13,971 nt of DNA, from the IMG/VR virus record IMGVR_UViG_2693429728_000012, positions 1-13,971 of that record, one strand, 5' to 3'. Numbering within the stretch: the stretch's first letter is position 1; every line of letters begins with the position of its first letter. This document shows positions 1 to 13,971 of the stretch, piece by piece. The stretch comes from a virus. Taxonomy: Duplodnaviria > Heunggongvirae > Uroviricota > Caudoviricetes. A program made the translations under genes and the position numbers. The notes beneath the pieces were generated by a model. It was not told the origin of the DNA and searched no databases. It saw only the letters and a program-made list of their open reading frames with translations.

Positions 1-699
<699 letters not shown>

Positions 700-1263
700 T
701 TAAGCCTCACTGATTACGGTATGAACCTTAGCTATAGGTTTTATATCACTAATATCACATTCAAATGAAAAACCATCCCCAGATACCATTGCTCTTTTGA
801 CTGGTATCAAATTGATTTTTTTAATACTCAGTTTTCCTTCTATATCCACCAACCATTGACCATCAGAAATGGTAGTGTCTTCTCGGTCACAAATGTAAAC
901 ATGTTGGTTAATTTTTATCGCTAATGCAGATTTTATTTCATTGAGAAGAAAGACTGGATCAATCTTGTGCGTTCCAAGTGCAATAGCCTCTCCATTTTTT
1001 AGTTCGCGAGTTTCAACGTCTACCAAAGAGTTGACTGCTGTGGTTTTTAACTCACCTTTCCCTGATACCAGCCAATCAATTGAAGTACCAGTTTCTACAA
1101 CGCATTGAAGTACCCAATCTGCTGGAAAAATGTCACGCATGTAGCGGGTTGCCATTGTGCTCTTTGAAACCCCTAAGTGGTCGCAAAGGGCCTGACGAGT
1201 GGTGAAACCATACGCCTCAACCAAACGTTCAATCACTTTCTTTCCGCCGCTATTGAAATTCAA
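700..1263 (-). CDS. cI: Phage 186-type CI immunity repressor (HTH N-domain plus C-terminal oligomerisation domain)
   Basis: ORF 700..1350; HTH-like segment ERLVEAYGFTTRQALCDHLGVSKSTMATRY followed by WLVSGKGE and a C-terminal SDGQWLVDIEG block recalled as 186 CI-like. Start uncertain: TTG at 1263 has a GGAGGA Shine-Dalgarno; alternatives are GTG 1236 and GTG 1350 (no SD). Stop TAA at 700-702. Confidence 0.75.
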   Translation of the reverse strand: MNFNSGGKKVIERLVEAYGFTTRQALCDHLGVSKSTMATRYMRDIFPADWVLQCVVETGTSIDWLVSGKGELKTTAVNSLVDVETRELKNGEAIALGTHKIDPVFLLNEIKSALAIKINQHVYICDREDTTISDGQWLVDIEGKLSIKKINLIPVKRAMVSGDGFSFECDISDIKPIAKVHTVISEA

Positions 1264-1290
1264 GAGTCCTCCAAAACAATCTAAATTGCA

Positions 1291-1319
1291 TTGACAGATT
1301 CCAAAAGCGATCTTAAAGT
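1291..1319 (+). promoter_or_regulatory. Candidate rightward lytic promoter (pR-like) for apl-cII-early operon
   Basis: TTGACA (1291-1296), 17-bp spacer, TAAAGT (1314-1319), about 90 bp upstream of the apl start. Its position is compatible with the face-to-face pR/pL arrangement known for 186. Confidence 0.35.
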
Positions 1320-1409
1320 TGACCTCGAAGTCTTCTTTTGGAGCCTTCACAACTAATCACGATAAACAACGGCTCGCCACAAGCCGAATTAAAGAAGGAA
1401 TGTTGCACC

Positions 1410-1631
1410 ATGAACCCAAACATTTCAATCACTCTGAACACACCACACGTCACAATTGAGCGTTATAGCGAACTTACTGGTCTTTCTATCGACACAATCA
1501 ACGATATGCTGGCTGATGGCCGCATCCCTCGGCATCGTCTCCGGAAGGACAAAAAAAGAGAAAAGGTAATGATCAACCTTGCTGCTCTTACCGTTGATGC
1601 ACTTACTGATTGCAATGTTGTATTCAACTAG
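1410..1631 (+). CDS. apl: Apl/Cox-like small DNA-binding protein (excisionase / lytic-switch repressor)
   Basis: 73-aa ORF starting at ATG 1410 with AAGGAA Shine-Dalgarno 9 nt upstream; divergent from cI; basic, small, first gene of the rightward operon as in 186 (apl) and P2 (cox). Confidence 0.7.
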
Positions 1632-1663
1632 TTCCATTTTGGGATATATCAGGGGTGTCGACT

Positions 1664-2173
1664 ATGTTTGATTACCAAGTTTCCAAACATCCACATTTTG
1701 ATGAAGCCTGTCGTGCATTCGCGTTGCGCCACAACCTGGTGCAACTGGCAGAACGTGCAGGCATGAATGTGCAGATTCTGCGGAACAAGCTGAACCCAGC
1801 TCAACCTCATTTATTAACCGCACCAGACATCTGGCTGCTTACCGATCTGACTGAGGATTCAACGCTGGTAGATGGTTTTCTGGCACAGATTCATTGTCTG
1901 CCATGTGTACCAATTAATGAGGTGGCAAAAGAGAAACTGCCACATTACGTCATGAGTGCAACCGCAGAGATCGGGCGTGTTGCTGCAGGTGCGGTTTCTG
2001 GCGATGTAAAAACCAGTGCAGGCCGTCGTGATGCGATCAGCAGCATTAACTCTGTTACACGACTGATGGCGCTGGCTGCTGTTTCATTGCAGGCCCGTTT
2101 ACAGGCTAATCCTGCGATGGCGAGTGCGGTTGATACCGTGACTGGCCTCGGTGCTTCATTCGGTTTGCTGTGA
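1664..2173 (+). CDS. cII: CII-like lysogeny-establishment transcriptional activator (186 CII family)
   Basis: 169-aa ORF from ATG 1664 (AGGGGTG Shine-Dalgarno at 1651-1657), the same length as 186 CII; N-terminus [19 protein letters not shown] and position immediately after apl. Confidence 0.75.
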
Positions 2174-2180
2174 GGTGCTT

Positions 2181-2477
2181 ATGCTTACGAAAGAACCATC
2201 ATTTGCATCGCTGCTGGTAAAGCAAAGCCCGGCAATGCACTACGGTCACGGCTGGATCATGGGTGAGGATGGTAAACGCTGGCATCCGTGCCGTTCACAA
2301 GATGAATTGCTGTCTGAATTGACCACGAGAAAATGGAGAAAGTCCAAATGTATGCGGCAGAAAGTGAAGTGGTTTATCAGTTTCGTTACAGAGGGGAGAG
2401 TTATTCAGTACCTGAAGATGATTTGCTCTGTTGCTATCCGTCGTTGTCGGGCGATGGTAGCTACTTTTTCACGCTAA
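2181..2477 (+). CDS. Hypothetical early protein (position of 186 fil/dhr-type small genes); 3' end uncertain
   Basis: ATG 2181 with GAGGTG Shine-Dalgarno directly after the cII stop. N-terminal half (…HGWIMGEDGKRWHPCRSQDEL) looks protein-like; the C-terminal part overlaps the next ORF in another frame and looks less so. Confidence 0.4.
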   Translation: MLTKEPSFASLLVKQSPAMHYGHGWIMGEDGKRWHPCRSQDELLSELTTRKWRKSKCMRQKVKWFISFVTEGRVIQYLKMICSVAIRRCRAMVATFSR

Positions 2478-2572
2478 AGGATGGAACCTTTATACGTGGT
2501 GAAAAAGTACAAGAAGTGATGCGTATAAAGACATCACCTCTTGAACGTTATCGGCGAAGTATTTATCGGTAA
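2348..2572 (+). CDS. Hypothetical small early protein
   Basis: ORF 2333..2572; ATG 2348 has GGAG 9 nt upstream. Translation MYAAESEVVYQFRYRGESYSVPEDDLLCCYPSLSGDGSYFFTLKDGTFIRGEKVQEVMRIKTSPLERYRRSIYR is compositionally protein-like. Confidence 0.45.
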   Translation: MYAAESEVVYQFRYRGESYSVPEDDLLCCYPSLSGDGSYFFTLKDGTFIRGEKVQEVMRIKTSPLERYRRSIYR

Positions 2573-2811
2573 CGATCTATCAGTGTCTGTATCAGATGAG
2601 TGAATTCTTGTTGTTTAACCGAACCTAAAGGAAGTTTGTTTAATTCTTCGCGGAGGAGCTCAAAAAATGCAGATTGATTTGCTGAGTCAGTTCGAAATAA
2701 GGAGTGGATCAGACCTGAAACAAGAATTCGTTGAACAGCAACCTCATCGCGAAGACTGGAGATCTCGTTTTCAAGTTGCTCTATACGCTCTCTTTCAACC
2801 GGGTTCAACAT
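2563..2811 (-). CDS. Hypothetical 82-aa helical protein encoded antisense to the early operon
   Basis: ATG at 2811 with AAGGA Shine-Dalgarno 7 nt upstream; translation MLNPVERERIEQLENEISSLRDEVAVQRIL… is clean and heptad-like. The competing plus-strand ORF 2667..2903 also has an SD (GAGGAG), so only one is likely real. Confidence 0.35.
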   Translation of the reverse strand: MLNPVERERIEQLENEISSLRDEVAVQRILVSGLIHSLFRTDSANQSAFFELLREELNKLPLGSVKQQEFTHLIQTLIDRYR

Positions 2812-2892
2812 TGATGATTCCTTCTAGCTATCAATATGTTGGTAATGGATCATATCAAAAATTTTTTAGTAGATGTGTTGTGGGATGCATAA

Positions 2893-3234
2893 ATGGCTAT
2901 TGAAGGCACTGCGGCGACTGTTCCATTAAGCCCCGGTGAACGCCTGAATGGACTTAATCACATTGCGGAGTTAAGGGCGAAAGTTTTTGGCCTGAATATT
3001 GAGTCAGAGCTTGAGCGGTTTATTAAAGATATGCGTGATTCACGGGATATTAATAGCGAACAAAATAAACGGGCACTGGCTGCCATATTCTTTATGGCAA
3101 AAATTCCAGCTGAACGTCATAGCATCAGCATTAATGAGCTGACCACTGACGAAAAGCGGGAGTTGATTAAAGCAATGAATCATTTTCGTGCAGTGGTGAG
3201 CTTATTTCCCAGACGGCTAACCATGCCGAATTAA
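2893..3234 (+). CDS. Hypothetical early-operon protein
   Basis: 113-aa ORF with a protein-like sequence throughout (…AELRAKVFGLNIESELERFIKDMRDSRD…); same orientation as the operon. Confidence 0.55.
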   Translation: MAIEGTAATVPLSPGERLNGLNHIAELRAKVFGLNIESELERFIKDMRDSRDINSEQNKRALAAIFFMAKIPAERHSISINELTTDEKRELIKAMNHFRAVVSLFPRRLTMPN

Positions 3235-3301
3235 CCAACTAATGAAATTAATGGCGTAAACCCGCCGGGCATCCCTTTATCTAAATTCAGGAGAATTGAT
3301 T

Positions 3302-3535
3302 ATGCGTAATATTGAAACCCTCTCGACCAAAACCGGACCGGATGACGCAGGGCTTAATATTTTACTGACAGAGGCTCGTCTGGAAGAACGCCGGGCAAGG
3401 GCTGAAGCAATGGCAGCTCGCCTTGATAGCCTGGCGTGTCATATCACATCCCGCCAGCTAACCCACGTCGAAGCGGCAGAACTGCTTCGTGTGACTGCTG
3501 AAGCAATCCAGAACGAAGCGCAGGAGATCCACTAA
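3302..3535 (+). CDS. Hypothetical small early protein
   Basis: ATG 3302 with CAGGAGA Shine-Dalgarno 7 nt upstream (the ORF track starts at TTG 3296); stop TAA overlaps the next ATG (TAATG). Confidence 0.6.
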   Translation: MRNIETLSTKTGPDDAGLNILLTEARLEERRARAEAMAARLDSLACHITSRQLTHVEAAELLRVTAEAIQNEAQEIH

Positions 3536-3762
3536 TGGCTGATGCAATGGATCTCGTACAGCAGCGCGTTGAAGAAGAACGCCAACGCCATATCCGTGCT
3601 GCCCGTGCCAAAACGCCGGGCGTGTCCCGCGTGCTTTGCATTGAGTGTGAAGCGCCAATTCCGCCAGCACGCCGCCGTGCCATTCCGGGTGTGCAGCTTT
3701 GCATTACCTGTCAGGAAATCGCAGAGCTGAAAGGCAAACATTACAACGGAGGTGCTGTATGA
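3535..3762 (+). CDS. TraR/DksA-family C4 zinc-finger protein
   Basis: 75 aa with CIECEAPIPP…CITCQ (CxxC-N17-CxxC), a typical phage TraR-like zinc finger; AGGAGA Shine-Dalgarno; translationally coupled on both sides. Confidence 0.8.
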   Translation: MADAMDLVQQRVEEERQRHIRAARAKTPGVSRVLCIECEAPIPPARRRAIPGVQLCITCQEIAELKGKHYNGGAV

Positions 3763-4616
3763 GCACCATCCTGAAATGGGCGGGAAATAAAACTGCCATA
3801 ATGTCCGAACTGAAAAAACATCTTCCTGCTGGCCCGCGACTGGTTGAACCTTTCGCGGGTTCCTGTGCTGTGATGATGGAGACGGATTATCCCAGCTATC
3901 TGGTTGCGGATATTAATCCTGATTTAATCAACCTCTATAAAAAGGTTGCCGCTGATTGTGAATCGTTTATATCTCGCGCCAGAGTTTTATTTGAGATCGC
4001 AAACAGGGAGGTGGCTTATTACAACATAAGGCAGGAGTTTAATTACTCAACTGAAATTACTGATTTCATGAAAGCGGTATATTTCCTGTATCTCAATCGT
4101 CACGGTTACCGTGGTTTATGTCGCTATAACAAGAGCGGGCATTTCAACATTCCCTACGGTAATTATAAAAATCCGTATTTCCCTGAAAAAGAAATTCGCG
4201 CATTTGCAGAAAAGGCCCAGCGAGCAACGTTTATCTGCGCCAGCTTTGATGAAACGCTGGCGATGTTGAAGGCGGGGGATGTGGTGTATTGCGATCCGCC
4301 GTATGACGGTACGTTTTCCGGCTATCACACTGACGGCTTCACTGAAGATGACCAGTATCACCTGGCATCTGTTCTTGAACATCGGTCATCAGAAGGACAT
4401 CCGGTCATTGTTTCTAACAGTGACACATCCCTGATCCGTTCGCTGTATCGCAATTTTACTCACCACTACATCAAGGCAAAACGCAGCATCGGTGTGGCAG
4501 CTGGCGAGGGTAAATCAGCAACAGAAATCATTGCTGTTTCCGGGCCGCGCTGCTGGGTGGGATTTGATTATTCGCGTGGCGTGGATAGTTCTGCCGTGTA
4601 CGGAGTACGTGCATGA
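3759..4616 (+). CDS. dam: DNA adenine methyltransferase (Dam-like, N6-adenine, orphan)
   Basis: ATG 3759 (ATGA overlap with the upstream stop, GGAGG Shine-Dalgarno). AdoMet motif EPFAGSCAV near the N-terminus and catalytic DPPY (YCDPPYDG); N-terminus [11 protein letters not shown] is typical of Dam-family enzymes. Confidence 0.85.
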
Positions 4617-7027
4617 GTCATGCCGATATGAACAACTGCTGCAGCTTTAACGAAGCTGCCGCATCGTTCTCATGGAACAGCCCGAAAAAGGCCATTAACC
4701 CTTATCTGGACCCGGCGGAAGTTGCGCCGGTTTCTGCGCTTTCAAACCTGATCACTCTGTACGCTACTGATAACGAGCAGGAACAACTGCGCCGCGAGGC
4801 ACTGAGTGATCAGGTCTGGGAGCGTTATTTCTTTAATGAATCCCGTGATCCTGTCCAACGCGAAATGGAGCAGGATAAGCTCATTAGCCGGGCAAAGATG
4901 GCGCATGAGCAGCAGCGTTTTAATCCAGACATGGTCATTCTGACTGACGTCAACGCCCAGCCTTCCCATATCAGCAAGCCGCTGATGCAACGTATTGAAT
5001 ATTTCAGCAGCCTGGGCAGGCCAAAGGCTTATTCCCGCTATTTGCGTGAGACGATTAAGCCATGTCTGGAACGACTGGAGCATGTACGCGACAGCCAGCT
5101 ATCTGCATCTTTTCGTTTTATGGCAAGCCATGAAGGGCTGGACGGTCTGATGATCCTGCCTGAAATGAGTCAGGATCAGGTGAAACGCCTGTCTACCCTT
5201 GTCGCTGCGCATATGAGCATGTGTCTTGATGCCGCTTGTGGTGATTTGTACGCCTCCGATGATGTTAAGCCAGAAGAAATCCGCAAGACATGGGAAAAGG
5301 TGGCTGCAGAAACCCTGCGACTGGATGTCATACCGCCAGCGTTTGAGCAACTCCGCCGGAAAAGAAACCGCCGCAAACCTGTGCCTTATGAACTCATTCC
5401 GGGTTCGCTGGCGCGTATGCTGTGCGCCGACTGGTGGTATCGGAAATTATGGAAGATGCGTTGCGAATGGCGGGAAGAGCAGTTGCGTGCTGTCAGCCTG
5501 GTCAGCAAAAAAGCATCTCCCTATGTCAGCTATGAAGCCGTGATGCATAAACGTGAGCAGCGCCGTAAGTCGCTGGAGTTTTTCCGTTCTCATGAACTGG
5601 TGAACGAAGACGGCGACACGCTGAACATGGAGGATGTGGTAAACGCCAGCAGCAGCAACCCGGCGCATCGCCGCAACGAGATGATGGCCTGTGTTAAAGG
5701 CCTGGAGCTTATCGCGGAAATGCGTGGTGACTGCGCCGTTTTCTACACCATCACCTGTCCGTCACGTTTCCATTCCACGCTAAATAACGGCAGGCCAAAC
5801 CCGACCTGGACCAACGCGACAGTAAGACAAAGCAGCGATTATCTGGTCGGCATGTTTGCTGCATTTCGTAAGGCTATGCACAAAGCCGGGTTGCGCTGGT
5901 ATGGCGTGCGGGTGGCTGAGCCGCATCATGACGGCACAGTTCACTGGCACCTGTTGTGTTTCATGCGCAAAAAAGACCGCCGCGCCATTACTGCATTGTT
6001 GCGTAAGTTTGCCATCCGTGAAGACCGCGAGGAGCTGGGCAATAACACGGGGCCACGCTTTAAGTCTGAGCTGATAAACCCGCGCAAAGGAACGCCGACA
6101 AGCTACATTGCGAAATATATCAGTAAGAATATTGACGGGCGTGGTCTGGCTGGCGAGATCAGTAAGGAAACAGGTAAATCCCTGCGTGATAACGCTGAAT
6201 ACGTTAATGCCTGGGCGTCTCTGCATCGTGTTCAGCAATTCCGCTTCTTTGGCATTCCGGGGCGTCAGGCTTACCGTGAACTGCGATTGCTGGCTGGTCA
6301 GGCGGCAAGGCAACAGGGTGACAAAAAAGCAGGTGCGCCGGTACTGGATAACCCGCGCCTTGATGCCATCCTGGCTGCTGCTGATGCTGGTTGTTTTGCC
6401 TCCTACATCATGAAGCAGGGCGGCGTACTGGTTCCCCGCAAATATCACCTCATCAGAACCGCTTATGAAATCAACGAAGAGCCGACCGCCTATGGCGATC
6501 ACGGTATTCGTATTTATGGCATCTGGTCACCCATTGCAGAGGGCAAGATCTGCACTCATGCAGTGAAGTGGAAAATGGTTCGTAAGGCCGTTGACGTTCA
6601 GGAGGCGGCAGCCGACCAGGGCGCTTGCGCCCCTTGGACTCGTGGCAATAACTGTCCCCTTGCTGAAAATTTGTACCAACAAGGGAAAGACAAATCAGCT
6701 GATGGAGATACCAGAACGGATATCACCCGTATGGATGACAAGGAGTTGCACGATTACCTGCACAGTATGAGCAAAAAAGAGCGCCGGGAACTGGCAGCAA
6801 GATTACGCCTGGTTAAACCGAAACGACGTAAAGACTACAAACAGCGAATTACAGAGTATCAGCGTCAGCAGCTCGTCTATGAACTGAAGTCCAGAGGATT
6901 TGATGGCAGCGAGAAAGAAGTCGATTTGCTCCTTCGCGGTGGCAGTATTCCATCAGGAGCAGGCCTGCGTATCTTCTATCGGAACCAGCGTCTGAAGGAA
7001 GATGATAAGTGGCGGAACCTGTATTAA
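4613..7027 (+). CDS. A: Replication initiator endonuclease A (P2 gpA-type HUH rolling-circle nickase)
   Basis: 804-aa ORF, ATG overlapping the dam stop (ATGA). HUH motif HWHLLCF ([11 protein letters not shown]) and tyrosine motif YIAKYISK; size and position match P2/186 gene A. Confidence 0.9.
6627..6648 (+). other. Candidate rolling-circle origin (nick site) inside the A coding sequence
   Basis: gcgccccttggactcgtggcaa resembles my recollection of the P2 ori nick region (GCGCC..GGAGTC..TG.CAA), which lies in the 3' part of gene A; here it is about 84% into A. Recalled, not verified. Confidence 0.3.
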
Positions 7028-7121
7028 TTACGCGGGTTAACAATTCGTGCTCTTAATAATACCAGGCATATCAGGCTGATGAACGTAAAAAAACGTTTTA
7101 CATCAGTAAGATTATTATATA

Positions 7122-7137
7122 CTGTAAATATAAACAG
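7122..7137 (+). promoter_or_regulatory. LexA operator (SOS box) overlapping the promoter of the downstream small-ORF/dinI-like pair
   Basis: aCTGTAAATATAAACAGtg is a full CTGT-N8-ACAG match to the LexA consensus. It overlaps -10-like hexamers (TATACT 7118-7123, TATAAA 7129-7134), about 45 bp upstream of ATG 7181. Confidence 0.7.
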
Positions 7138-7180
7138 TGGTTATGTATACAGTATTGCTTGTGGTGTCATAGGAGGAAAG

Positions 7181-7369
7181 ATGCAGGACTATTTTTTGGA
7201 GTCTTTGAAGCTCCAGCGCATTGATTTTTTTCTTAAGCTTGTAGCGGCTAGTGAGTGTAGTGATGAAGAGAAGGGGCTGGCTCTGCAGTGGGTTTCTGAA
7301 CTGACAGATGAACTCATGGCAAAAATCAGAACCCACGAATACAACCGCTCAATGGATGTCATCAGCTGA
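7181..7369 (+). CDS. SOS-regulated small protein (possible N-terminal part or partner of a Tum-like antirepressor)
   Basis: 62-aa ORF from ATG 7181 with a strong AGGAGGAAAG Shine-Dalgarno. The ORF-track start at 7079 runs through the promoter and LexA box, so the internal start is preferred. Confidence 0.5.
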   Translation: MQDYFLESLKLQRIDFFLKLVAASECSDEEKGLALQWVSELTDELMAKIRTHEYNRSMDVIS

Positions 7370-7379
7370 GGTGACTTTT

Positions 7380-7613
7380 ATGCGCATTGAAATAATGATC
7401 GATAAAGAGCAGAAGATTAGCCAGTCTACCCTGGACGCCCTTGAATTCGAGCTTTACCGCAATCTGCGCCCCCTATATCCAAAAACGGTAATTCGTATCC
7501 GCAAAGGTAGCTCTAACGGTGTGGAACTTACCGGATTGCAACTGGACGAAGAAAGAAAACAAGTGATGAAAATTATGCAGAAAGTGTGGGAAGACGACAG
7601 CTGGCTGCATTAA
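7380..7613 (+). CDS. DinI-like protein (DinI/Tum C-domain family)
   Basis: ATG 7380 with GAGGTG Shine-Dalgarno. MRIEIMIDKEQKISQSTLDALEFELYRNLRPLYP…KVWEDDSWLH follows the E. coli DinI pattern (MRIEVTIAK…AGAIDALAGEL…ETWESADDW), recalled from memory. Confidence 0.75.
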   Translation: MRIEIMIDKEQKISQSTLDALEFELYRNLRPLYPKTVIRIRKGSSNGVELTGLQLDEERKQVMKIMQKVWEDDSWLH

Positions 7614-7621
7614 GAAACGTT

Positions 7622-7660
7622 GCCCCCAAGAGGATTCATTCGAATGGGGGCTAGTTTGGG
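7622..7660 (+). terminator. Possible terminator after the dinI-like gene
   Basis: GCCCCCA…(palindrome CATTCGAATG)…TGGGGGC followed by TAGTTTGGG; the stem is GC-rich but the loop is large and the T-tract weak. Confidence 0.3.
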
Positions 7661-7798
7661 CAATGAGTGAAATAAGGCGTAAGGTGGGTGGTCATTTTGA
7701 TAAATGATCGTCCGCTTTGTGCCAGAAGCGAACGTTTCTTCTGCTATCTTTCGTCAATTAACGAATGGCAGACTAATTTGCAACGGATAATCTGAATT

Positions 7799-7825
7799 TT
7801 GTAAGATTATGGGTATTCCTATAAT
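7799..7825 (+). promoter_or_regulatory. Candidate sigma70 promoter for the KAP NTPase gene
   Basis: TTGTAA (7799-7804), 15-bp spacer, TATAAT (7820-7825), in an AT-rich intergenic region upstream of ATG 7935; spacer is shorter than optimal. Confidence 0.25.
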
Positions 7826-7934
7826 ATTTACCAATAATAACCTTACAATGTACACTACCTATTGAATTTTCCATAGTTGGCCTTTGGCTCTACTTACCAT
7901 CTATGTTTATGTATTTTATCAAAATGGACTAAAA

Positions 7935-9827
7935 ATGCACAATACGTACATCAAAGACTATATAGAATATTACCTTAGCCTTAAAACTGAACCTCAATAC
8001 GCCATTATGCTTAAAGGTGCTTGGGGATCAGGTAAAACTTGGTTCATTGAACGAGTTCTTGAAGAATATAAGCAAAAGCATTCAGAGTTCAAATTTCTTA
8101 AAGTGAGTTTGTATGGCGTCAACTCTATTGAGCAGATTGAAGATGAGTTCTATCGTCAACTTCATCCTATTCTATCAAACAAAGCCCTTATCTTTGGTGC
8201 AAATGTACTAAAAAATACGCTTAAGGCTACTTTCAAGATCGATTTCAATGGCGATAATAAGTCTGACGTAGATGTCAATGCCAGTGTCCCCACCATTAAT
8301 CTTAGCGACTTTAGCAGAGAACCAGATGGTTTTGTGCTGGTCTTTGATGATATCGAGAGAGCTGGTATAGATTTACCAATCTTATTTGGATATATAAATC
8401 ACTTTGTAGAAGTAAACGGATACAAAGCGATCCTGGTTGCCAATGAAGAAGAAATAATCAACAGAGAAAAGCGAATAAATAATGATGATGAGAAATCTAG
8501 CAGTGAATACATAAGAACAAAAGAAAAGCTTGTAGGTAAAACATTTGAAGTAACGTCAGATTTACATAGTGCTTGTAATATTTTCTTGGGCGTAATTAGT
8601 AGTTTACACGTAGCTAATATATTTAAAGAAGATATGCAGACCATAGAACACCTCTATGTGTCGGCGAAATATAATAATCTAAGACATTTGAGGCAGTTCT
8701 TTCTTGATGTACAACGCATCATTTCCCTTTTGGGAGATAAATATGTCAGCAACGACGATTTTATGAAAGTATTTTTCCAGCAGTTATTAATTTTCTCGAT
8801 GGAGTACCGGGGAGGGAACCTTAACTACGAGGATTTCAATTCAATCGGCAATGTAAATTATAGTATGTTTTTAGATAAAGGGCGTGCCAAAACTAAGTAT
8901 GATATGATCGTCGAGAAATATTCATCACCTGTATTAACCGAGACGTTACTGGATGGTGCGTACTGGAGAGAGCTAATCTGTGATGGAAAGGTAACGCATG
9001 ATCTTCTCGCTCAGCTGGATATTACGCGATTTTTTAGAAGCACCGATGCCCAAGCATGGGAGTATTTGTGGAACTATCGAGAACTTAATGAAACTATTCT
9101 TAATGAACAGTACGCCATTGCCAAGGATAATCTATTTTCAGGTAAGATCACTTCCTTAGGTGAACTCCTGATGACCGCGAGTATTTTGCTGGCATTGGCG
9201 AAAGAAGGTTTAACCACAGATGCTGTTGATGACATTATAAATGAGACAAAACATCATATAGATATTTATTACAATGGATTAGGACCTGAAGATATACATC
9301 AGGAGTATGCGCAAAGACATTATAATGAGTTAATGGCATGGCGTGGCTTTGGTTTTCTTGACAGGGATAGCGATGAATTCAAACTCATTATTGAGCATAT
9401 TAAGATAGCGCAGAAGAAACGGTTTGATGAATCAATTCCGGAGTTTGCATTGAAGTTCAGCGATGAGTTGCAAAGAGGAAATTTATCGTTTGTATCTGAA
9501 TTGTGTCATTCTAATAATAGGCAGCTAAATCTTCATAACGTGCCTTTTTTACACTTGGTTTCTCCTGAAGTTTTCATTGAAAGCTATAGGAAACTTGACC
9601 CAATCATCATGAGGAAACTGGCATTTAGCTTGAGGGATCGTTATTCTGATAGGGATGCCAGAACCAGACTGACCGAAGAATACAACTGGTTGATTAGCCT
9701 AAAAGAGATAGCTGTAGATTTCACTCAAAACGCAGCCAATAACTCCTTTCAGGTTTTTCATGTAAAGTTTTTTATTGACTATGCACTAACTAATGCAATC
9801 AAATTATTTACTGAGGGAACTGATTAA
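7935..9827 (+). CDS. KAP-family P-loop NTPase (full length, about 630 aa), probable accessory/defense cargo
   Basis: Walker A GAWGSGKT near the N-terminus and Walker B VLVFDDIER about 120 aa later, with a long alpha-helical C-terminal region. First in-frame ATG is 7935 (the ORF track begins at TTG 7884). Strongly AT-rich compared with flanking A and Q/P genes. Confidence 0.85.
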   Translation: MHNTYIKDYIEYYLSLKTEPQYAIMLKGAWGSGKTWFIERVLEEYKQKHSEFKFLKVSLYGVNSIEQIEDEFYRQLHPILSNKALIFGANVLKNTLKATFKIDFNGDNKSDVDVNASVPTINLSDFSREPDGFVLVFDDIERAGIDLPILFGYINHFVEVNGYKAILVANEEEIINREKRINNDDEKSSSEYIRTKEKLVGKTFEVTSDLHSACNIFLGVISSLHVANIFKEDMQTIEHLYVSAKYNNLRHLRQFFLDVQRIISLLGDKYVSNDDFMKVFFQQLLIFSMEYRGGNLNYEDFNSIGNVNYSMFLDKGRAKTKYDMIVEKYSSPVLTETLLDGAYWRELICDGKVTHDLLAQLDITRFFRSTDAQAWEYLWNYRELNETILNEQYAIAKDNLFSGKITSLGELLMTASILLALAKEGLTTDAVDDIINETKHHIDIYYNGLGPEDIHQEYAQRHYNELMAWRGFGFLDRDSDEFKLIIEHIKIAQKKRFDESIPEFALKFSDELQRGNLSFVSELCHSNNRQLNLHNVPFLHLVSPEVFIESYRKLDPIIMRKLAFSLRDRYSDRDARTRLTEEYNWLISLKEIAVDFTQNAANNSFQVFHVKFFIDYALTNAIKLFTEGTD

Positions 9828-9890
9828 CATTTTGTTGATTAACATAGGTAATATTATTAGAAGTACTAGACATGGTCAGTAAAATTATTA

Positions 9891-9924
9891 AAGTCCGCTT
9901 CGCTCGAAGCGGACTTTGTGCTTT
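9891..9924 (+). terminator. Rho-independent terminator downstream of the KAP NTPase gene
   Basis: Perfect inverted repeat aagtccgcttcg-ct-cgaagcggactt followed by tgtgcttt. Confidence 0.6.
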
Positions 9925-10045
9925 ATAAAAACGAGAGTTTTGTTTTTCAAGCGGTCATTCGGTTACGGGATTTCACTTCCCCCGTAAGTGCATGACTATG
10001 CCGCATGAGATCGCATGATCGTTTGCGGATCGTTTTTGCCAAGGT

Positions 10046-10067
10046 CCGCCAGAACTGGCGGGCTTTT
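10046..10067 (+). terminator. Second rho-independent terminator (or 3' end of a small transcript)
   Basis: ccgcca-gaac-tggcgg, a 6-bp GC stem with tetraloop, followed by gctttt. Confidence 0.45.
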
Positions 10068-10112
10068 GCGTAGATCATGCAGGTGCATGAAAACCACTAC
10101 ATAAAGTGGGCA

Positions 10113-10131
10113 GGCGTGGCGGGGATACGAG
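10113..10131. other. Candidate cos site (cohesive-end sequence) of a P2/186-like phage
   Basis: GGCGTGGCGGGGA matches the start of the 19-nt cohesive end I recall for 186/P2 (GGCG[T/A]GGCGGGGAAAGCA…), and it sits between the A-side cargo and Q where cos is expected. Downstream bases diverge from the recalled sequence. Confidence 0.4.
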
Positions 10132-10289
10132 CGCGCGCAACGAGGTGAAATAGCAAAACTCGGCACAGCCTACGGCCCGCTAGCGGCTTCAAATTGAAAT
10201 GGTGAGGTGCAGCAGCAAAAAAACCGCCCCACAGGAAGTTGTTGAGGTTGTTTATTGAGGGAATTGGCTTAAGCGGTAAAACACAAACA

Positions 10290-10318
10290 TTGCAACTTGT
10301 GCATGAAATTGATACATT
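10290..10318 (+). promoter_or_regulatory. Candidate promoter for the 223-aa unknown gene
   Basis: TTGCAA (10290-10295), 17-bp spacer, TACATT (10313-10318), about 30 nt upstream of ATG 10351, which has a GGGGTG Shine-Dalgarno-like sequence. Confidence 0.25.
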
Positions 10319-10350
10319 GTGCGTAATGTGTCTATATTGCGGGGTGTTTT

Positions 10351-11022
10351 ATGGCTTTCAGAGCGGAAGAAGCAGCAGCATCGAATTTCGAAAATGCTTA
10401 CAGATATCTAGTTCCACAAGGTTCAAATCAGGAGATGCGTTCGAAAGTTAGGGCGAAGCTCAAAGAAATTGTTGAAGAATGTGGGCCAGTAGTGGATGGG
10501 TATCCAGCATGGCACCCTTTTTTGCTGGAAAGAGATAAAGCTATTTGGGCGCCTATGACTCCCAATAATACTCCTAGCTTTAAATACCTGGACCACACGG
10601 TCTATTTCAGGAACGGCATTCTTACCTGTCCTTATGGTCATGGGGTTGATGAATTTATAGCTGGTATAAAACGTCTAAAGCACACGGATGCCCATTTCTC
10701 TATTGAGAAGATTGATGACGTTGTGCTTTATAATGACAACGCCGTCCCGTTGTTAATAAAATGCCATTGGCTTATTTCGGAAGATATGGAAGAGGATGGC
10801 ACCATTCCAGCAAAAGCAGCAATTGGATTGATGCTTGAAAGCGAGGTTCCTAACTGGCGGCATGCAGTTTATTGTGAAAATTGGGAAGATATGCGCGGGC
10901 AGTTGATGGGATATCCGCACGGTGCCAGATCATCTCTATTTGTTAATCAGCAGACAGGACAGAAAATGAAAAACTTCTGGAATCAGCTGATTAAGACCGG
11001 AATTCTTGGGGAAGAGCGATAA
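10351..11022 (+). CDS. Hypothetical 223-aa protein of unknown function (cargo gene between cos and portal gene)
   Basis: Clean ORF with a protein-like sequence and no motif I recognise; has its own putative promoter and a downstream hairpin; convergent with Q; moderately AT-rich. Confidence 0.7.
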   Translation: MAFRAEEAAASNFENAYRYLVPQGSNQEMRSKVRAKLKEIVEECGPVVDGYPAWHPFLLERDKAIWAPMTPNNTPSFKYLDHTVYFRNGILTCPYGHGVDEFIAGIKRLKHTDAHFSIEKIDDVVLYNDNAVPLLIKCHWLISEDMEEDGTIPAKAAIGLMLESEVPNWRHAVYCENWEDMRGQLMGYPHGARSSLFVNQQTGQKMKNFWNQLIKTGILGEER

Positions 11023-11035
11023 TTTCTTGAGGCTT

Positions 11036-11066
11036 AGCTGCGCCTTTAACAAGCAGAGGCGCTGCT
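11036..11066. terminator. Bidirectional terminator candidate between the convergent 223-aa gene and Q
   Basis: gcgcct-ttaacaagcag-aggcgc, with an inner agcag/ctgct stem, followed by tttttaaattt; lies in the 52-bp gap between two convergent stop codons. Confidence 0.4.
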
Positions 11067-11074
11067 TTTTAAAT

Positions 11075-12124
11075 TTAGCTATCGTTGTTTGTGTCTATTC
11101 CCAGCGTGTAGGGCTCGAAGCGGATCACCTCTTTACCTAGCCAGTAATTCAGCTCCTGCAGCCGCTTTTGCAGCGGCATCAGTTCATTGCGGACGAAGAC
11201 ACGGCTCGCTTTTTCCACATCCCCAAAACCCCCAACATTATTCGGCATAATCCCCATCATTTGCGGTGGCACACGATGCGCCGCCATCATGTCATCCCGG
11301 CTCACGTTCTTGATGTTCAGAAACTCATCCTTCGCCGCGACTTCTGACAACGGGATGATCTGAAGCCCGTCCTTTTTGCCGTTAGGCGAGTACATAAACA
11401 GATTGCGGAAGTTACCTGGTCCTTTGGCGCTTTTCATCGCATTGCGGAGGTTGTTCACATCCTCCTGGTTTTGCGCGGCATCGGTCATGTACATGATGAA
11501 GCCTGCATGACTGCCGTTAATGTAATACTTTCGGCGGAACAGCGTGGCGGACTCGTTGAGCAGGGCTGACGGAATGGCAGAAAGATAACCTGGCAGGCCG
11601 TAGATCTCCTGGTTGATGTCCGGTTCCATCAGATGAAAGATGCTGCCTTTCGTAAACTGATACGGCTGCGTGGTCATGCCGTATTGCACAAACCAGTAGG
11701 TATCCAGGTCTAACCCGCGTCGGGTGTATTTTGCCAGGGCCGGTTCAAGGACGATAACTTCACCGAAGCGGTTCGTGCGTTTCTCCAGGTAGGCGTTACC
11801 AAATACCAGATAGTCCTGCACAAAACGTGAAAAAGCCTGCTGGCTGAGCAGCGGGTGAGGGATGTAGGTGCTGGTCAGAATGTTGCACTTTACTGCAATC
11901 GGGGAACTGTGATGCACGGCGGCGCGAAAGGTGCGCGCCAGCCCGTCGAAACTCACTGGCGGCTCATACCAACGATCTGTCTGTACGCATTCCACATAGT
12001 CCAGCAGTTCGCGGCGGTCCAGAACAGGAACGGGATCACCGAAGCTGAATGCTTCGGCTGAAGTCTGGCTTTTATGCTGGATCTGGTTCGTCGACGCAGC
12101 GCGGTTCTTCTTACTCTTTCCCAT
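11075..12124 (-). CDS. Q: Portal (capsid portal/head completion) protein, P2 gpQ-like
   Basis: About 349 aa, N-terminus MGKSKKNR…; size, orientation and adjacency to the terminase match P2 Q. ATG 12124..12122 overlaps the P stop (TGATG); the ORF-track start at 12127 is TTG. Confidence 0.85.
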   Translation of the reverse strand: MGKSKKNRAASTNQIQHKSQTSAEAFSFGDPVPVLDRRELLDYVECVQTDRWYEPPVSFDGLARTFRAAVHHSSPIAVKCNILTSTYIPHPLLSQQAFSRFVQDYLVFGNAYLEKRTNRFGEVIVLEPALAKYTRRGLDLDTYWFVQYGMTTQPYQFTKGSIFHLMEPDINQEIYGLPGYLSAIPSALLNESATLFRRKYYINGSHAGFIMYMTDAAQNQEDVNNLRNAMKSAKGPGNFRNLFMYSPNGKKDGLQIIPLSEVAAKDEFLNIKNVSRDDMMAAHRVPPQMMGIMPNNVGGFGDVEKASRVFVRNELMPLQKRLQELNYWLGKEVIRFEPYTLGIDTNNDS

Positions 12125-13890
12125 CAAAAAATCTCCACAATATTGCTGGTATTGGCGGACTCGCCCTGCAGCGGTTCGTTAAACAGTGCGTGCATGGTTG
12201 CCCAGGCCAGATCGGCATGGCTGGCTTCTTCGCTGCGGCTGGCTTCATAGGTCGGGCGGTTGCCGCTGGCGGTGGTGGCGCGACGGATTGCCATAAATGA
12301 CTGCGCTATGTCGGTGTGTCCGGCGTCAAACTCCAGACGGCGGTGACTGATAATGTCGTAGGCCTTGAGTACCAGGGCGTTTTTAACGTTGGGGTTGTAG
12401 ACAAACTCCCGGACGGCTGGAAAAAACGCTTTCACGTTCTCGTAAACCCCGTGACCAACGCCGGTTGAGTCGATACCGATATAAGTCACGTTGTACTGTT
12501 CGGTAAGTTTTTTGATGGCGTCAGCCTGGGCGCGGAAGTCCATCCCGCGCCACTGGTGACGCTCAAGAATGCGGAACTTACCACCCGGCACGGCTGGCGG
12601 TGCCACCACCACGCATCCAGCGCTGTCGCCGTTTTGCGTACCTTTTGCCGGGTCATAACCGATCCACACTTCGCGCCAGCCAAACGGGCGCAGTGCCAGT
12701 GCATGAAAGTCGGTCCAGACTTCCCAACTGTCCACCATGCACGCCTGCAGCTCGCTGAGCGGAAACACGGACGCGAGATCGTCCACAAACTCGCACATCA
12801 GCAGGTTCTGGTATTCGTCCGGGCTGTACTCCATGCGTAGCTGGTCGAGGTCGAACAGGTTACAGCCGCCGCGCACCGCATCTTCCACGGTGACTATCTG
12901 GCGGTACTGCCCGTCTGCGCACAGCAGGCCGGGGGCTAGATTGCTGTGGGACAGGTCGATGTCCACCTTATCGGCTTTGTTGCGCCCACGGTTGAACAGC
13001 GCACCGGACCAGAACGGATAAGCACTGTGTGTCAGACTGGATGGCGTGGAAAAATAGGTTTGTCGCCATTTTTTGTGAATAGCCATACCGGAAGCCACTT
13101 TGCGCAGCTCCTGGAATTTCGGTATCCAGAAATATTCATCCAGATACAGGTTGCCGTGGTAACTCTGGGCCGTGCGGGCATTGGTGCCGAGGAAGTAAAG
13201 CGTGGCCCCGTTAGGAAGCACCATCGGATCGCCTTTCAGCTCCACCTCCACTTCTTTGGCAAAGTCGATGATGTACTGTTTAAAGACGTGGGCCTGAGCC
13301 TTGCTGGCAGAAAGGAAAATCTGGTTACGCCCGGTCAGCAGGGCGTCAATCAGGGCTTCACGGGCAAAGTAAAAGGTCGCGCCGATCTGGCGTGACTTCA
13401 GCAGGTTGCGGATGCGGTTGGTTTTTCCGGCTTCCCACCAGTGGCGCTGGTAGTTGAACATAGAGGAATTGAAGATTTCTTCCAGTTTCTCAATCTGTTC
13501 ATCGGTGAAAACATTCTTTTCCGGCTGACGACGTGGGCCTTTGTTGCGGTTGGCAACGTTAGGGTTTAAGTCGGCTTCGTTGCCGCCATTGTTAAACTTG
13601 CCGATCCGCGCGTGGCGCTCAGACTGGCGTGCCAGCAGGTCAATTTCTTTGAAATCTTTCCCTTCTTTGTGCTCCTTCATAATGAGCTGGCAGTAGCGTG
13701 CGGCGGTGGTGAGCTGCATCTGATCCAGCGGCCCATAGTCACCCCACTTGTCGCGTTTTTTCCAGCTGTGAACGGTTGCAACTTTCTCGCCCAGCATTTC
13801 AGCAATGCGGGCGACGCGGTATCCCTGAAAGTACAGCAGCATGGCCTGCCGACGGGGATCGAGGTCTGCGGGTGTCAGTGTGGTGTTCAT
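12124..13890 (-). CDS. P: Terminase large subunit (ATPase/nuclease), P2 gpP-like
   Basis: 588-aa ORF from ATG 13890; size and position upstream of Q are characteristic of P2-like terminase P, and the sequence is protein-like throughout. Confidence 0.85.
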   Translation of the reverse strand: MNTTLTPADLDPRRQAMLLYFQGYRVARIAEMLGEKVATVHSWKKRDKWGDYGPLDQMQLTTAARYCQLIMKEHKEGKDFKEIDLLARQSERHARIGKFNNGGNEADLNPNVANRNKGPRRQPEKNVFTDEQIEKLEEIFNSSMFNYQRHWWEAGKTNRIRNLLKSRQIGATFYFAREALIDALLTGRNQIFLSASKAQAHVFKQYIIDFAKEVEVELKGDPMVLPNGATLYFLGTNARTAQSYHGNLYLDEYFWIPKFQELRKVASGMAIHKKWRQTYFSTPSSLTHSAYPFWSGALFNRGRNKADKVDIDLSHSNLAPGLLCADGQYRQIVTVEDAVRGGCNLFDLDQLRMEYSPDEYQNLLMCEFVDDLASVFPLSELQACMVDSWEVWTDFHALALRPFGWREVWIGYDPAKGTQNGDSAGCVVVAPPAVPGGKFRILERHQWRGMDFRAQADAIKKLTEQYNVTYIGIDSTGVGHGVYENVKAFFPAVREFVYNPNVKNALVLKAYDIISHRRLEFDAGHTDIAQSFMAIRRATTASGNRPTYEASRSEEASHADLAWATMHALFNEPLQGESANTSNIVEIF

Positions 13891-13936
13891 GGCACAAACC
13901 TACAGCCTTGAATGAAGGCTTTCCCCGCCTGCGGTT

Positions 13937-13954
13937 TGTGTGGTTGTCGGTACA
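13937..13954 (-). promoter_or_regulatory. Candidate P2-type late promoter activator site (Ogr/B-type TGT-N12-ACA dyad) upstream of P
   Basis: Minus-strand reading TGTACCGACAACCACACA is TGT-N12-ACA, centred about 55 bp upstream of the P start codon; P2 late promoters carry such a dyad near -55. Confidence 0.35.
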
Positions 13955-13971
13955 AATACCGCGCATTGTTT

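Follow-up and report, generated by a model that had tools for sequence, protein, structure and literature searches.

We analysed a stretch of DNA of 13,971 nucleotides (nt), positions 1 to 13,971 of the IMG/VR virus record IMGVR_UViG_2693429728_000012; this whole stretch is called the window here, and it is a 186-like (Peduoviridae) Escherichia coli prophage. Between its Fil and DUF5347 genes, two open reading frames (ORFs) compete for the same DNA, ORF82 on the minus strand and ORF78 on the plus strand (Table 1). The original prediction, made from the letters of the DNA, had proposed that the leftward frame is a gene embedded in a rightward early operon. Both frames were found where it had placed them, each beginning with ATG, and the operon around them is indeed rightward: the apl-like gene, CII, Fil, DUF5347, DUF2732, TraR, Dam and gpA all lie on the plus strand. 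Comparison of related lineages showed that ORF82 is a protein-coding gene under purifying selection, lying backwards in the pR-type early operon of this 186-like prophage.

The size of ORF82 is uninformative by itself, because many off-frame ORFs in the window are similarly long; it is conservation that sets it above chance. Nei-Gojobori statistics were calculated in all six frames for four lineages with nucleotide identities of 67-74%; over the lineages together, DNA identity was 67-78%. In the ORF82 frame the proportion of nonsynonymous differences (pN) was 0.17-0.21 and that of synonymous differences (pS) 0.58-0.84, and the ratio of nonsynonymous to synonymous rates (dN/dS) was 0.12-0.18 where dS was defined. 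Third codon positions held 33-51 of the 65-81 differences per pair, and synonymous sites were near saturation. The frame encoded 82 amino acids (aa) in every compared lineage with no stop codon at all, and each of the five other frames had 2-10 stops in each lineage. In the same lineages the ORF78 frame gave a dN/dS of 1.5-2.4, a value above one that is expected, since its second codon position lies opposite the wobble position of ORF82. The strand under purifying selection, which had been named beforehand as the check to make, is thus the minus strand, and the same test supports a leftward gene within the rightward operon.

In Lelliottia, Klebsiella and metagenomes, protein searches found full-length homologues that share 65-71% of their residues with ORF82, and a profile search widened the family to proteins of 79-86 aa and 28-54% identity in Pantoea, Pectobacterium and Pseudescherichia. 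At 90% identity the family forms 23 clusters, from Escherichia, Klebsiella, Lelliottia, Pseudescherichia, Pantoea and Pectobacterium. ORF82 matched PHROG 26925, a family of unknown function, over its whole length (E 1.6e-57), all 82 residues being aligned to the 82 positions of the profile, and PGAP calls it a hypothetical protein (WP_001556502 / WP_000934004) in the E. coli strains KS-NP019 and W, among other genomes. The dN/dS values, the PGAP call and the PHROG of its own identify the minus-strand ORF, and not ORF78, as the genuine gene, and the comparative evidence settles the strand ambiguity at 2563-2903. The existence of the gene is not new, since RefSeq and PHROGs already list it as a hypothetical protein; a search of the literature gave no paper on the protein accessions or the PHROG of ORF82, and none on a function of DUF5347.

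ORF78 also carries the Shine-Dalgarno (SD) sequence that had been ascribed to it, GGAGGAG, 8-9 nt before its ATG. This sequence and the operon orientation would suit the opposite assignment, with ORF78 as the true gene and ORF82 as an antisense frame that is open by chance. Such an assignment is extremely unlikely, however: in addition to the dN/dS of its frame, the ORF78 protein is unconserved between lineages whose ORF82 proteins are 65-71% identical, it has no family match in Pfam, PHROGs or NCBIfam, and the ORF straddles an indel boundary at 2869/2870. On the dN/dS and the missing family matches we ruled it out as a true gene; at most, ORF78 is a translated spacer.

We also considered that both strands are translated, with ORF82 encoding the protein and ORF78 serving as a bridge whose product is irrelevant, which would keep ribosomes on the early transcript over the 320-nt antisense cassette and pass them to DUF5347 (anti-polarity, translational coupling). 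The ATG of ORF78, which needs Ala48 of ORF82 to be encoded by GCA, is kept in all six lineages of the E. coli/Klebsiella clade, the sixth agreeing with the prediction, and GGAG or GAGG stands 8-10 nt upstream in five of the six (L031 is without it). The frame stays open across spacers of varying length (76-81 nt where measured), and in the five lineages whose DUF5347 start was mapped, the stop of the frame lies close to that ATG, from 4 nt ahead of it to 37 nt past it. Codon resampling gave a probability of an open frame of 0.14-0.46 per lineage, with a product of 4e-4 under background codon usage, and shuffling of synonymous codons within the gene gave P values of 0.04-0.14 per lineage; these simulations made a chance origin of the pattern look unlikely. 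However, antisense frames of control genes at the same loci were also stop-free in all lineages (CII, 49 and 47 codons; DUF5347, 41; TraR, 72), and this empirical comparison took away most of the signal. The conservation of GCA is weak evidence, because 3 of the 15 four- or six-fold codons of ORF82 are invariant anyway; more distant lineages are without the pattern, and the dN/dS of the frame is above one. A selected bridge was therefore rejected, and we keep it as a very unlikely idea.

ORF82 has candidate expression signals of its own. The proposed SD sequence AAGGA was found 7 nt before its ATG, and other ORF82 lineages have purine-rich sequences (AGGG, GGGGA, GAGGA) at the equivalent place. 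Further upstream lies an extended -10 promoter-like element, TGATATGAT, whose 5' end is 46 nt upstream of the ATG, with 37 nt separating the motif from the start codon. It is one of just three matches to TGNTATNAT in the whole window on both strands, and TGnTAnnnT was present at -44 to -46 in seven lineages (the window, L007, L008, L012, L031, L047 and L048). When the upstream regions of diverged homologues were aligned, the conserved islands were the DUF5347 start, TGnTATGAT or a close variant, TGATAGC and the SD sequence; the rest of the spacer between ORF82 and DUF5347, which is 81 nt long with a GC content of 31%, was variable.

At the other end of the gene, a terminator scan found a hairpin followed by TACTTTTTCA (fold z = -3.5), which begins 20 nt past the ORF82 stop, within the coding sequence of the neighbouring ORF79. 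Its stem was recognised in 8 of 10 ORF82 lineages, with altered sequences that still pair and imperfections that are mostly G-U on the leftward strand, and it is plausible as a terminator or 3' stabiliser of a leftward ORF82 transcript. A stem-loop in the last 60 nt of ORF79 was seen in L001, L002, L007, L008, L012, L031, L041, L044 and L047, in variants such as GTGATG/CATCAC, GTGATA/TATCAC and GAGATAC/GTATCGTC, some of the changes being non-synonymous in ORF79. These stem-loops may be leftward terminators, RNA processing sites or pause sites.

A further sequence at this place, ATGTTGGTAATGGATCATATCAAAAAT, resembles the 186-type CII operator (ATGTTTG-N13-CAAACAT) with one mismatch per half-site and overlaps the ORF82 -10 element; a perfect CII site marks the pE promoter of the window. 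A CII-activated leftward promoter of the 186 pE type was rejected for ORF82, as the CII-like site overlaps the -10 element rather than preceding it. The site is probably due to chance, because it is not conserved in other ORF82 lineages; if it were real, CII would occlude the ORF82 promoter. No RNA family of Rfam matched in the region 2200-3100.

Table 1. Position of ORF82, its candidate signals and the neighbouring genes in the window
Feature	Position	Strand	Remarks
ORF82	2563..2811	-	82 aa; ATG start; conserved protein-coding gene
SD sequence of ORF82	2823-2819	-	AAGGA
Extended -10 promoter-like element	2857-2849	-	no recognisable -35
CII-like site	2836-2862
Hairpin	2543-2510 (element 2500..2543)	-	13 base pairs (bp); about -20 kcal/mol
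Presence/absence cassette	2554..2869		316 bp; ORF82 promoter element, SD sequence and coding sequence; GC 38.6%
ORF78	2667..2903	+	78 aa; operon sense, antisense to ORF82; not a conserved protein
ORF79 (phrog_4312)	2333..2572	+	likely true start ATG 2348; PHROG E 1.8e-48
Fil	2181..2477	+	cell-division inhibitor; Pfam Phage_186_Fil over residues 15-61 of a 108-aa ORF
DUF5347 gene	2893..3234	+	Pfam PF17282, E 1.8e-33; next operon gene, divergent from ORF82
CI repressor	700-1350	leftward
apl-like gene	1338-1631	+
Perfect CII site (pE)	1664-1690
CII	to 2173	+
DUF2732, TraR/DksA zinc finger, Dam	downstream of DUF5347	+
gpA replication endonuclease	4613-7027	+
96-aa ORF	7079-7369		no family match
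DinI-like ORF	7308-7613		Pfam DinI, E 6.5e-22
KAP-family P-loop NTPase	7884-9827		647 aa; GC 36.5%
Portal, large terminase	right end of window	leftward

The promoter-like element, SD sequence and coding sequence of ORF82 lie together on a cassette that is present or absent as a whole. L001 and L002, whose flanks are 91-96% identical to those of the window, align to 2101-2553 and to 2870/2893-3400 with only about 16-40 nt in between. Three states of the site were found: in Salmonella phage SE479_1PHIH2 Fil is followed directly by DUF5347; in E. coli p13P477T-2 and Klebsiella phage 4LV2017 ORF79 has been added; and the window has ORF79 plus the cassette with ORF82. The GC content of the cassette is well below that of gpA (52.6%), portal (53.3%) and terminase (56.1%), the core genes as a whole having 50-56%. 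The cassette was detected in 65 of 5426 complete E. coli genomes, each time at 98.7% identity or more, and ORF79 DNA in 596 of the 5426. ORF82 does occur in prophage contigs of IMG/VR; no homologue was found in a scan of GTDB representatives, and two single-protein scans of viral contigs gave no match. We also noticed the cassette at 100% identity in NZ_CP026085.1 and NZ_CM135829.1, which are labelled 'E. coli DH5alpha' (about 4.83 Mb); these strain labels may be wrong, because a 186-like prophage is not expected in K-12 derivatives.

The presence/absence indel, the low GC content, the promoter-like element and the downstream hairpin are consistent with the suggestion of the original prediction that the leftward gene could be a moron. 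Morons of temperate phages, such as lambda bor, are independent, often oppositely oriented units between operon genes and are expressed from the prophage. ORF82 resembles them in being an indel between collinear genomes with a GC content below that of the core genes and opposite orientation, and it has a candidate promoter element and a hairpin of its own. Unlike them, it is situated within the early regulatory operon and not in the late region, is always accompanied by the operon-sense partner ORF79, and is known here from sequence. It is best filed as an uncharacterised moron-class gene with an unusual position and partner. Similarly, ORF82 can be compared with old, tin and fun(Z) of the P2 family and with the defence hotspots of P2-like prophages, which occur in the same phage family and comprise non-essential accessory genes that vary among close relatives; the window itself carries a hotspot gene (PDC-S49 / KAP NTPase). 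In contrast to old, tin and fun(Z), ORF82 is situated inside the early operon between fil and DUF5347, is much smaller, shows no sequence similarity to them and has no PADLOC match.

The partner gene, ORF79, overlaps the 3' end of ORF82 with its own 3' end by 10 nt. The conserved domain of Fil ends near 2333, and the remainder of the Fil ORF overlaps ORF79. Over five lineages pN/pS was 0.19 in the ORF79 frame and 1.67 in the overlapping frame of the Fil extension, so ORF79 is a real gene and the Fil tail is non-conserved read-on, which arose when ORF79 was inserted. RefSeq records of E. coli give a 'Fil family protein' of 98 aa that runs over ORF79 with about its last 48 codons, and ORF79 is unannotated in them; in L008, fil has an in-frame stop and both ORF79 and ORF82 are intact. 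ORF79 was also considered as the Dhr of phage 186, and this was rejected as there is no similarity. It matched no toxin or antitoxin family in Pfam, NCBIfam or PADLOC.

A gene like ORF79 was found convergent with ORF82 in all 11 lineages examined. The stops of the two genes overlap by 4-10 nt or are separated by a gap of up to 7 nt, with the exception of L043/L044 (48 nt), and pairwise BLASTP between the ORF79-like partners gave E values of 2e-10, 4e-10 and 8e-24. The pair stands between Fil and DUF5347 in Escherichia, Klebsiella and Lelliottia and between CII and Fil in Pantoea-type loci and L047, and L035 and L045 have two further arrangements without Fil. It thus occupies at least four operon settings, and because it is found at different operon positions it behaves as a two-gene module. 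In addition, the two proteins diverge in step, with identities of 56% and 40%, 35% and 38%, and 33% and 28%. This joint inheritance and movement, with parallel divergence, is the strongest clue to function, and a functional pairing of ORF82 with ORF79 is strongly suggested by synteny.

The original prediction had also named a small regulator or a toxin/antitoxin type as possible roles. Two small adjacent genes that are inherited together recall toxin-antitoxin systems; the overlapping 3' ends give a limited antisense complementarity, and ORF79 sits where phage 186 carries host-takeover genes (fil, dhr). In contrast to such systems, ORF79 and ORF82 each occur without an intact partner, and the classical layout is absent because the pair is convergent and not co-transcribed. 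The features of a type II system were not found, since the two genes are convergent in every lineage and neither matches a toxin-antitoxin family in Pfam, NCBIfam or PADLOC. Those of a type I system were not found either: the antisense unit codes for a selected protein, ORF79 is not hydrophobic, and there is no Rfam match.

AlphaFold2, run with an alignment of 22 sequences, predicted three helices in ORF82 (residues 4-41, 43-57 and 65-81) with a mean pLDDT of 87.5. The protein is acidic, with 13 D/E against 10 K/R. The predicted shape is an AroQ-like three-helix arrangement without the catalytic residues, and ORF82 is predicted to be a small all-helical protein with a long N-terminal helix, probably a dimer. 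The assignment to AroQ chorismate mutases was rejected, as we found neither a significant structural match nor conserved active-site residues. TetR-type matches in a PDB profile search (E about 0.02) were judged spurious.

Taking the sequence evidence together, we lean towards the view that ORF82 is a gene of the moron type which the lysogen expresses from a separate extended -10 promoter, and that it acts as an antidote- or immunity-type modulator of an early protein of the ORF79 class. It would form a separate leftward transcription unit, starting from a -35-independent TGATATGAT promoter and ending at the hairpin inside the 3' end of ORF79. Since CI represses the rightward early promoter in a lysogen, nothing would then oppose the leftward promoter, and the prophage would produce ORF82; once induction or infection sets in, early transcription from the opposite direction would collide with the ORF82 unit and lower its expression while ORF79 is made. 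ORF82 would act by binding another protein rather than DNA, and the best candidate for a target is the ORF79-class early protein, supplied either by the prophage's own leaky early transcription or by a superinfecting relative. Leaky transcription of the early operon has been described in the lysogen of a 186-like Salmonella prophage (PMC7067206). It is speculative that ORF82 guards against such leakage or against superinfecting relatives. In favour of a benefit to the lysogen we count that in two decayed Pantoea prophage remnants, L043 and L044, ORF82 is intact and the ORF79 copy is broken.

A candidate leftward promoter that faces rightward early transcription is a feature shared with pR/pL and pE of phage 186 and with paQ and oop of lambda, and transcriptional interference is expected from this arrangement. 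Unlike those, the ORF82 unit encodes a protein under purifying selection and has no conserved CII site. Another explanation is that the main role lies at the level of transcription or RNA: the leftward promoter would brake convergent transcription on its way from the immediate-early genes (apl, cII, fil, ORF79) to the replication genes, by transcriptional interference or antisense RNA where phage 186 has tR1, and the protein would play a subordinate part. In favour of a brake, the conserved promoter-like element lies exactly at the boundary held by tR1 in 186, and the predicted transcript is antisense to the last 10-60 nt of ORF79. Phage 186 itself already relies on interference between the convergent promoters pR and pL; its GenBank annotation records this and also puts the terminator tR1 at the equivalent boundary, which follows dhr. 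However, Pantoea-type phages have the pair before Fil, away from the boundary equivalent to tR1, and the lack of an Rfam match also speaks against an RNA-level role. The ORF82 protein itself must be selected, because dN/dS is 0.12-0.18 and conservation extends down to 28% identity, and we consider the brake decidedly unlikely.

Several observations weigh against the view that ORF82 is a lysogen-expressed modulator of ORF79. Searches of ORF82 in Pfam, NCBIfam and PADLOC gave no match, and Foldseek against PDB and BFVD found nothing significant and no structural neighbour that would indicate a function. A strict sigma-70 scan for -35/-10 pairs detected no ORF82 promoter; extended -10 promoters do not need a -35, and a scan for two hexamers is negative for this reason. 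Only in the window and L041 does a clear T-run follow the hairpin, and the hairpin has perhaps not evolved as an ORF82 terminator, because it is also found in phages with ORF79 only. ORF79 without ORF82 is about nine times commoner in E. coli, and as ORF79 is so often alone it does not need ORF82; ORF82, in turn, may act independently of ORF79, because it survives in the Pantoea remnants. Finally, no homologue of ORF82 was present in 50,697 deposited phage genomes, or in 72,556 plasmids. The absence from deposited phages may be a sampling effect, or prophages with ORF82 may rarely be recovered as free phage. The Fil/DUF5347 flanks were present in 92 deposited phage genomes, none of which had an ORF82 homologue, as against 65 of 1230 flank-bearing E. 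coli genomes (about 5%).

Some of these points would also agree with ORF82 as an autonomous lysogenic-conversion or defence moron, for instance a phage-exclusion gene or a modifier of host physiology, whose constant adjacency to ORF79 would only reflect common descent from a single insertion or a dependence on the ORF79 hairpin as a terminator. Intact ORF82 beside broken ORF79 and the frequent occurrence of ORF79 alone fit this explanation, as does the GC content, which is low like that of the other accessory genes of the window. P2-family prophages are known for the lysogen-expressed exclusion genes tin, old and fun, which is a further point in its favour. On the other hand, the pair has moved among at least four operon positions without separating, there is no PADLOC match, and a protein of 82 aa that has no enzymatic motif is rather small to work as a defence system by itself. 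An autonomous moron seems possible, though rather unlikely.

The modulator reading can be extended to a more specific model, in which ORF79 and ORF82 would be an undescribed convergent two-gene switch module of 186/P2-type prophages. ORF79 would be expressed only when pR fires, and ORF82, a helical antidote made in the lysogen, would be silenced by collision with transcription from pR, so that expression of the two would be mutually exclusive and dependent on the state of the prophage. The module would possibly confer immunity to ORF79 of superinfecting relatives, and ORF78 may remain open to translation solely so that ribosomes reach the replication genes across the antisense gene. We put this model forward tentatively and regard it as unlikely in this complete form.

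What is added here to the existing annotation is the comparative proof of the coding strand, the boundaries of the cassette, the conserved promoter-like element and the invariant convergent pairing with ORF79. RefSeq records of E. coli are correct on ORF82 but miss ORF79 by extending Fil over it. A conserved backward gene can evidently find a place in the unidirectional early operon of 186-type phages, which is a classic model of convergent-promoter interference, and the strict pairing would link two uncharacterised phage families, PHROG 26925 and phrog_4312, in a functional and testable manner. The gene would be of more than modest biological importance only if the ORF79/ORF82 pair turned out to be a new regulatory, switch or immunity module.

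In the Pantoea genomes L043 and L044 (about 100-2000 and 4977-6528) the decayed prophage remnants with their intact ORF82 homologue lie beside a retron-type reverse transcriptase and a Retron_Ec48 effector. The flanks also contain a second RVT_1 gene at the place expected for CII/CI and a CdiI_2 immunity gene; these loci are a small defence-gene island on the remains of a 186-like prophage.

In the window itself, the KAP-family NTPase is a match (E 1.2e-160) to PDC-S49, a candidate defence protein in PADLOC, and its gene lies between gpA/DinI and portal, which corresponds to the tin/old-type accessory hotspot of P2-like phages. The DinI-like ORF 3' of gpA occupies the place that the Tum/DinI SOS operon has in phage 186, and the 96-aa ORF lies upstream of it and overlaps it.

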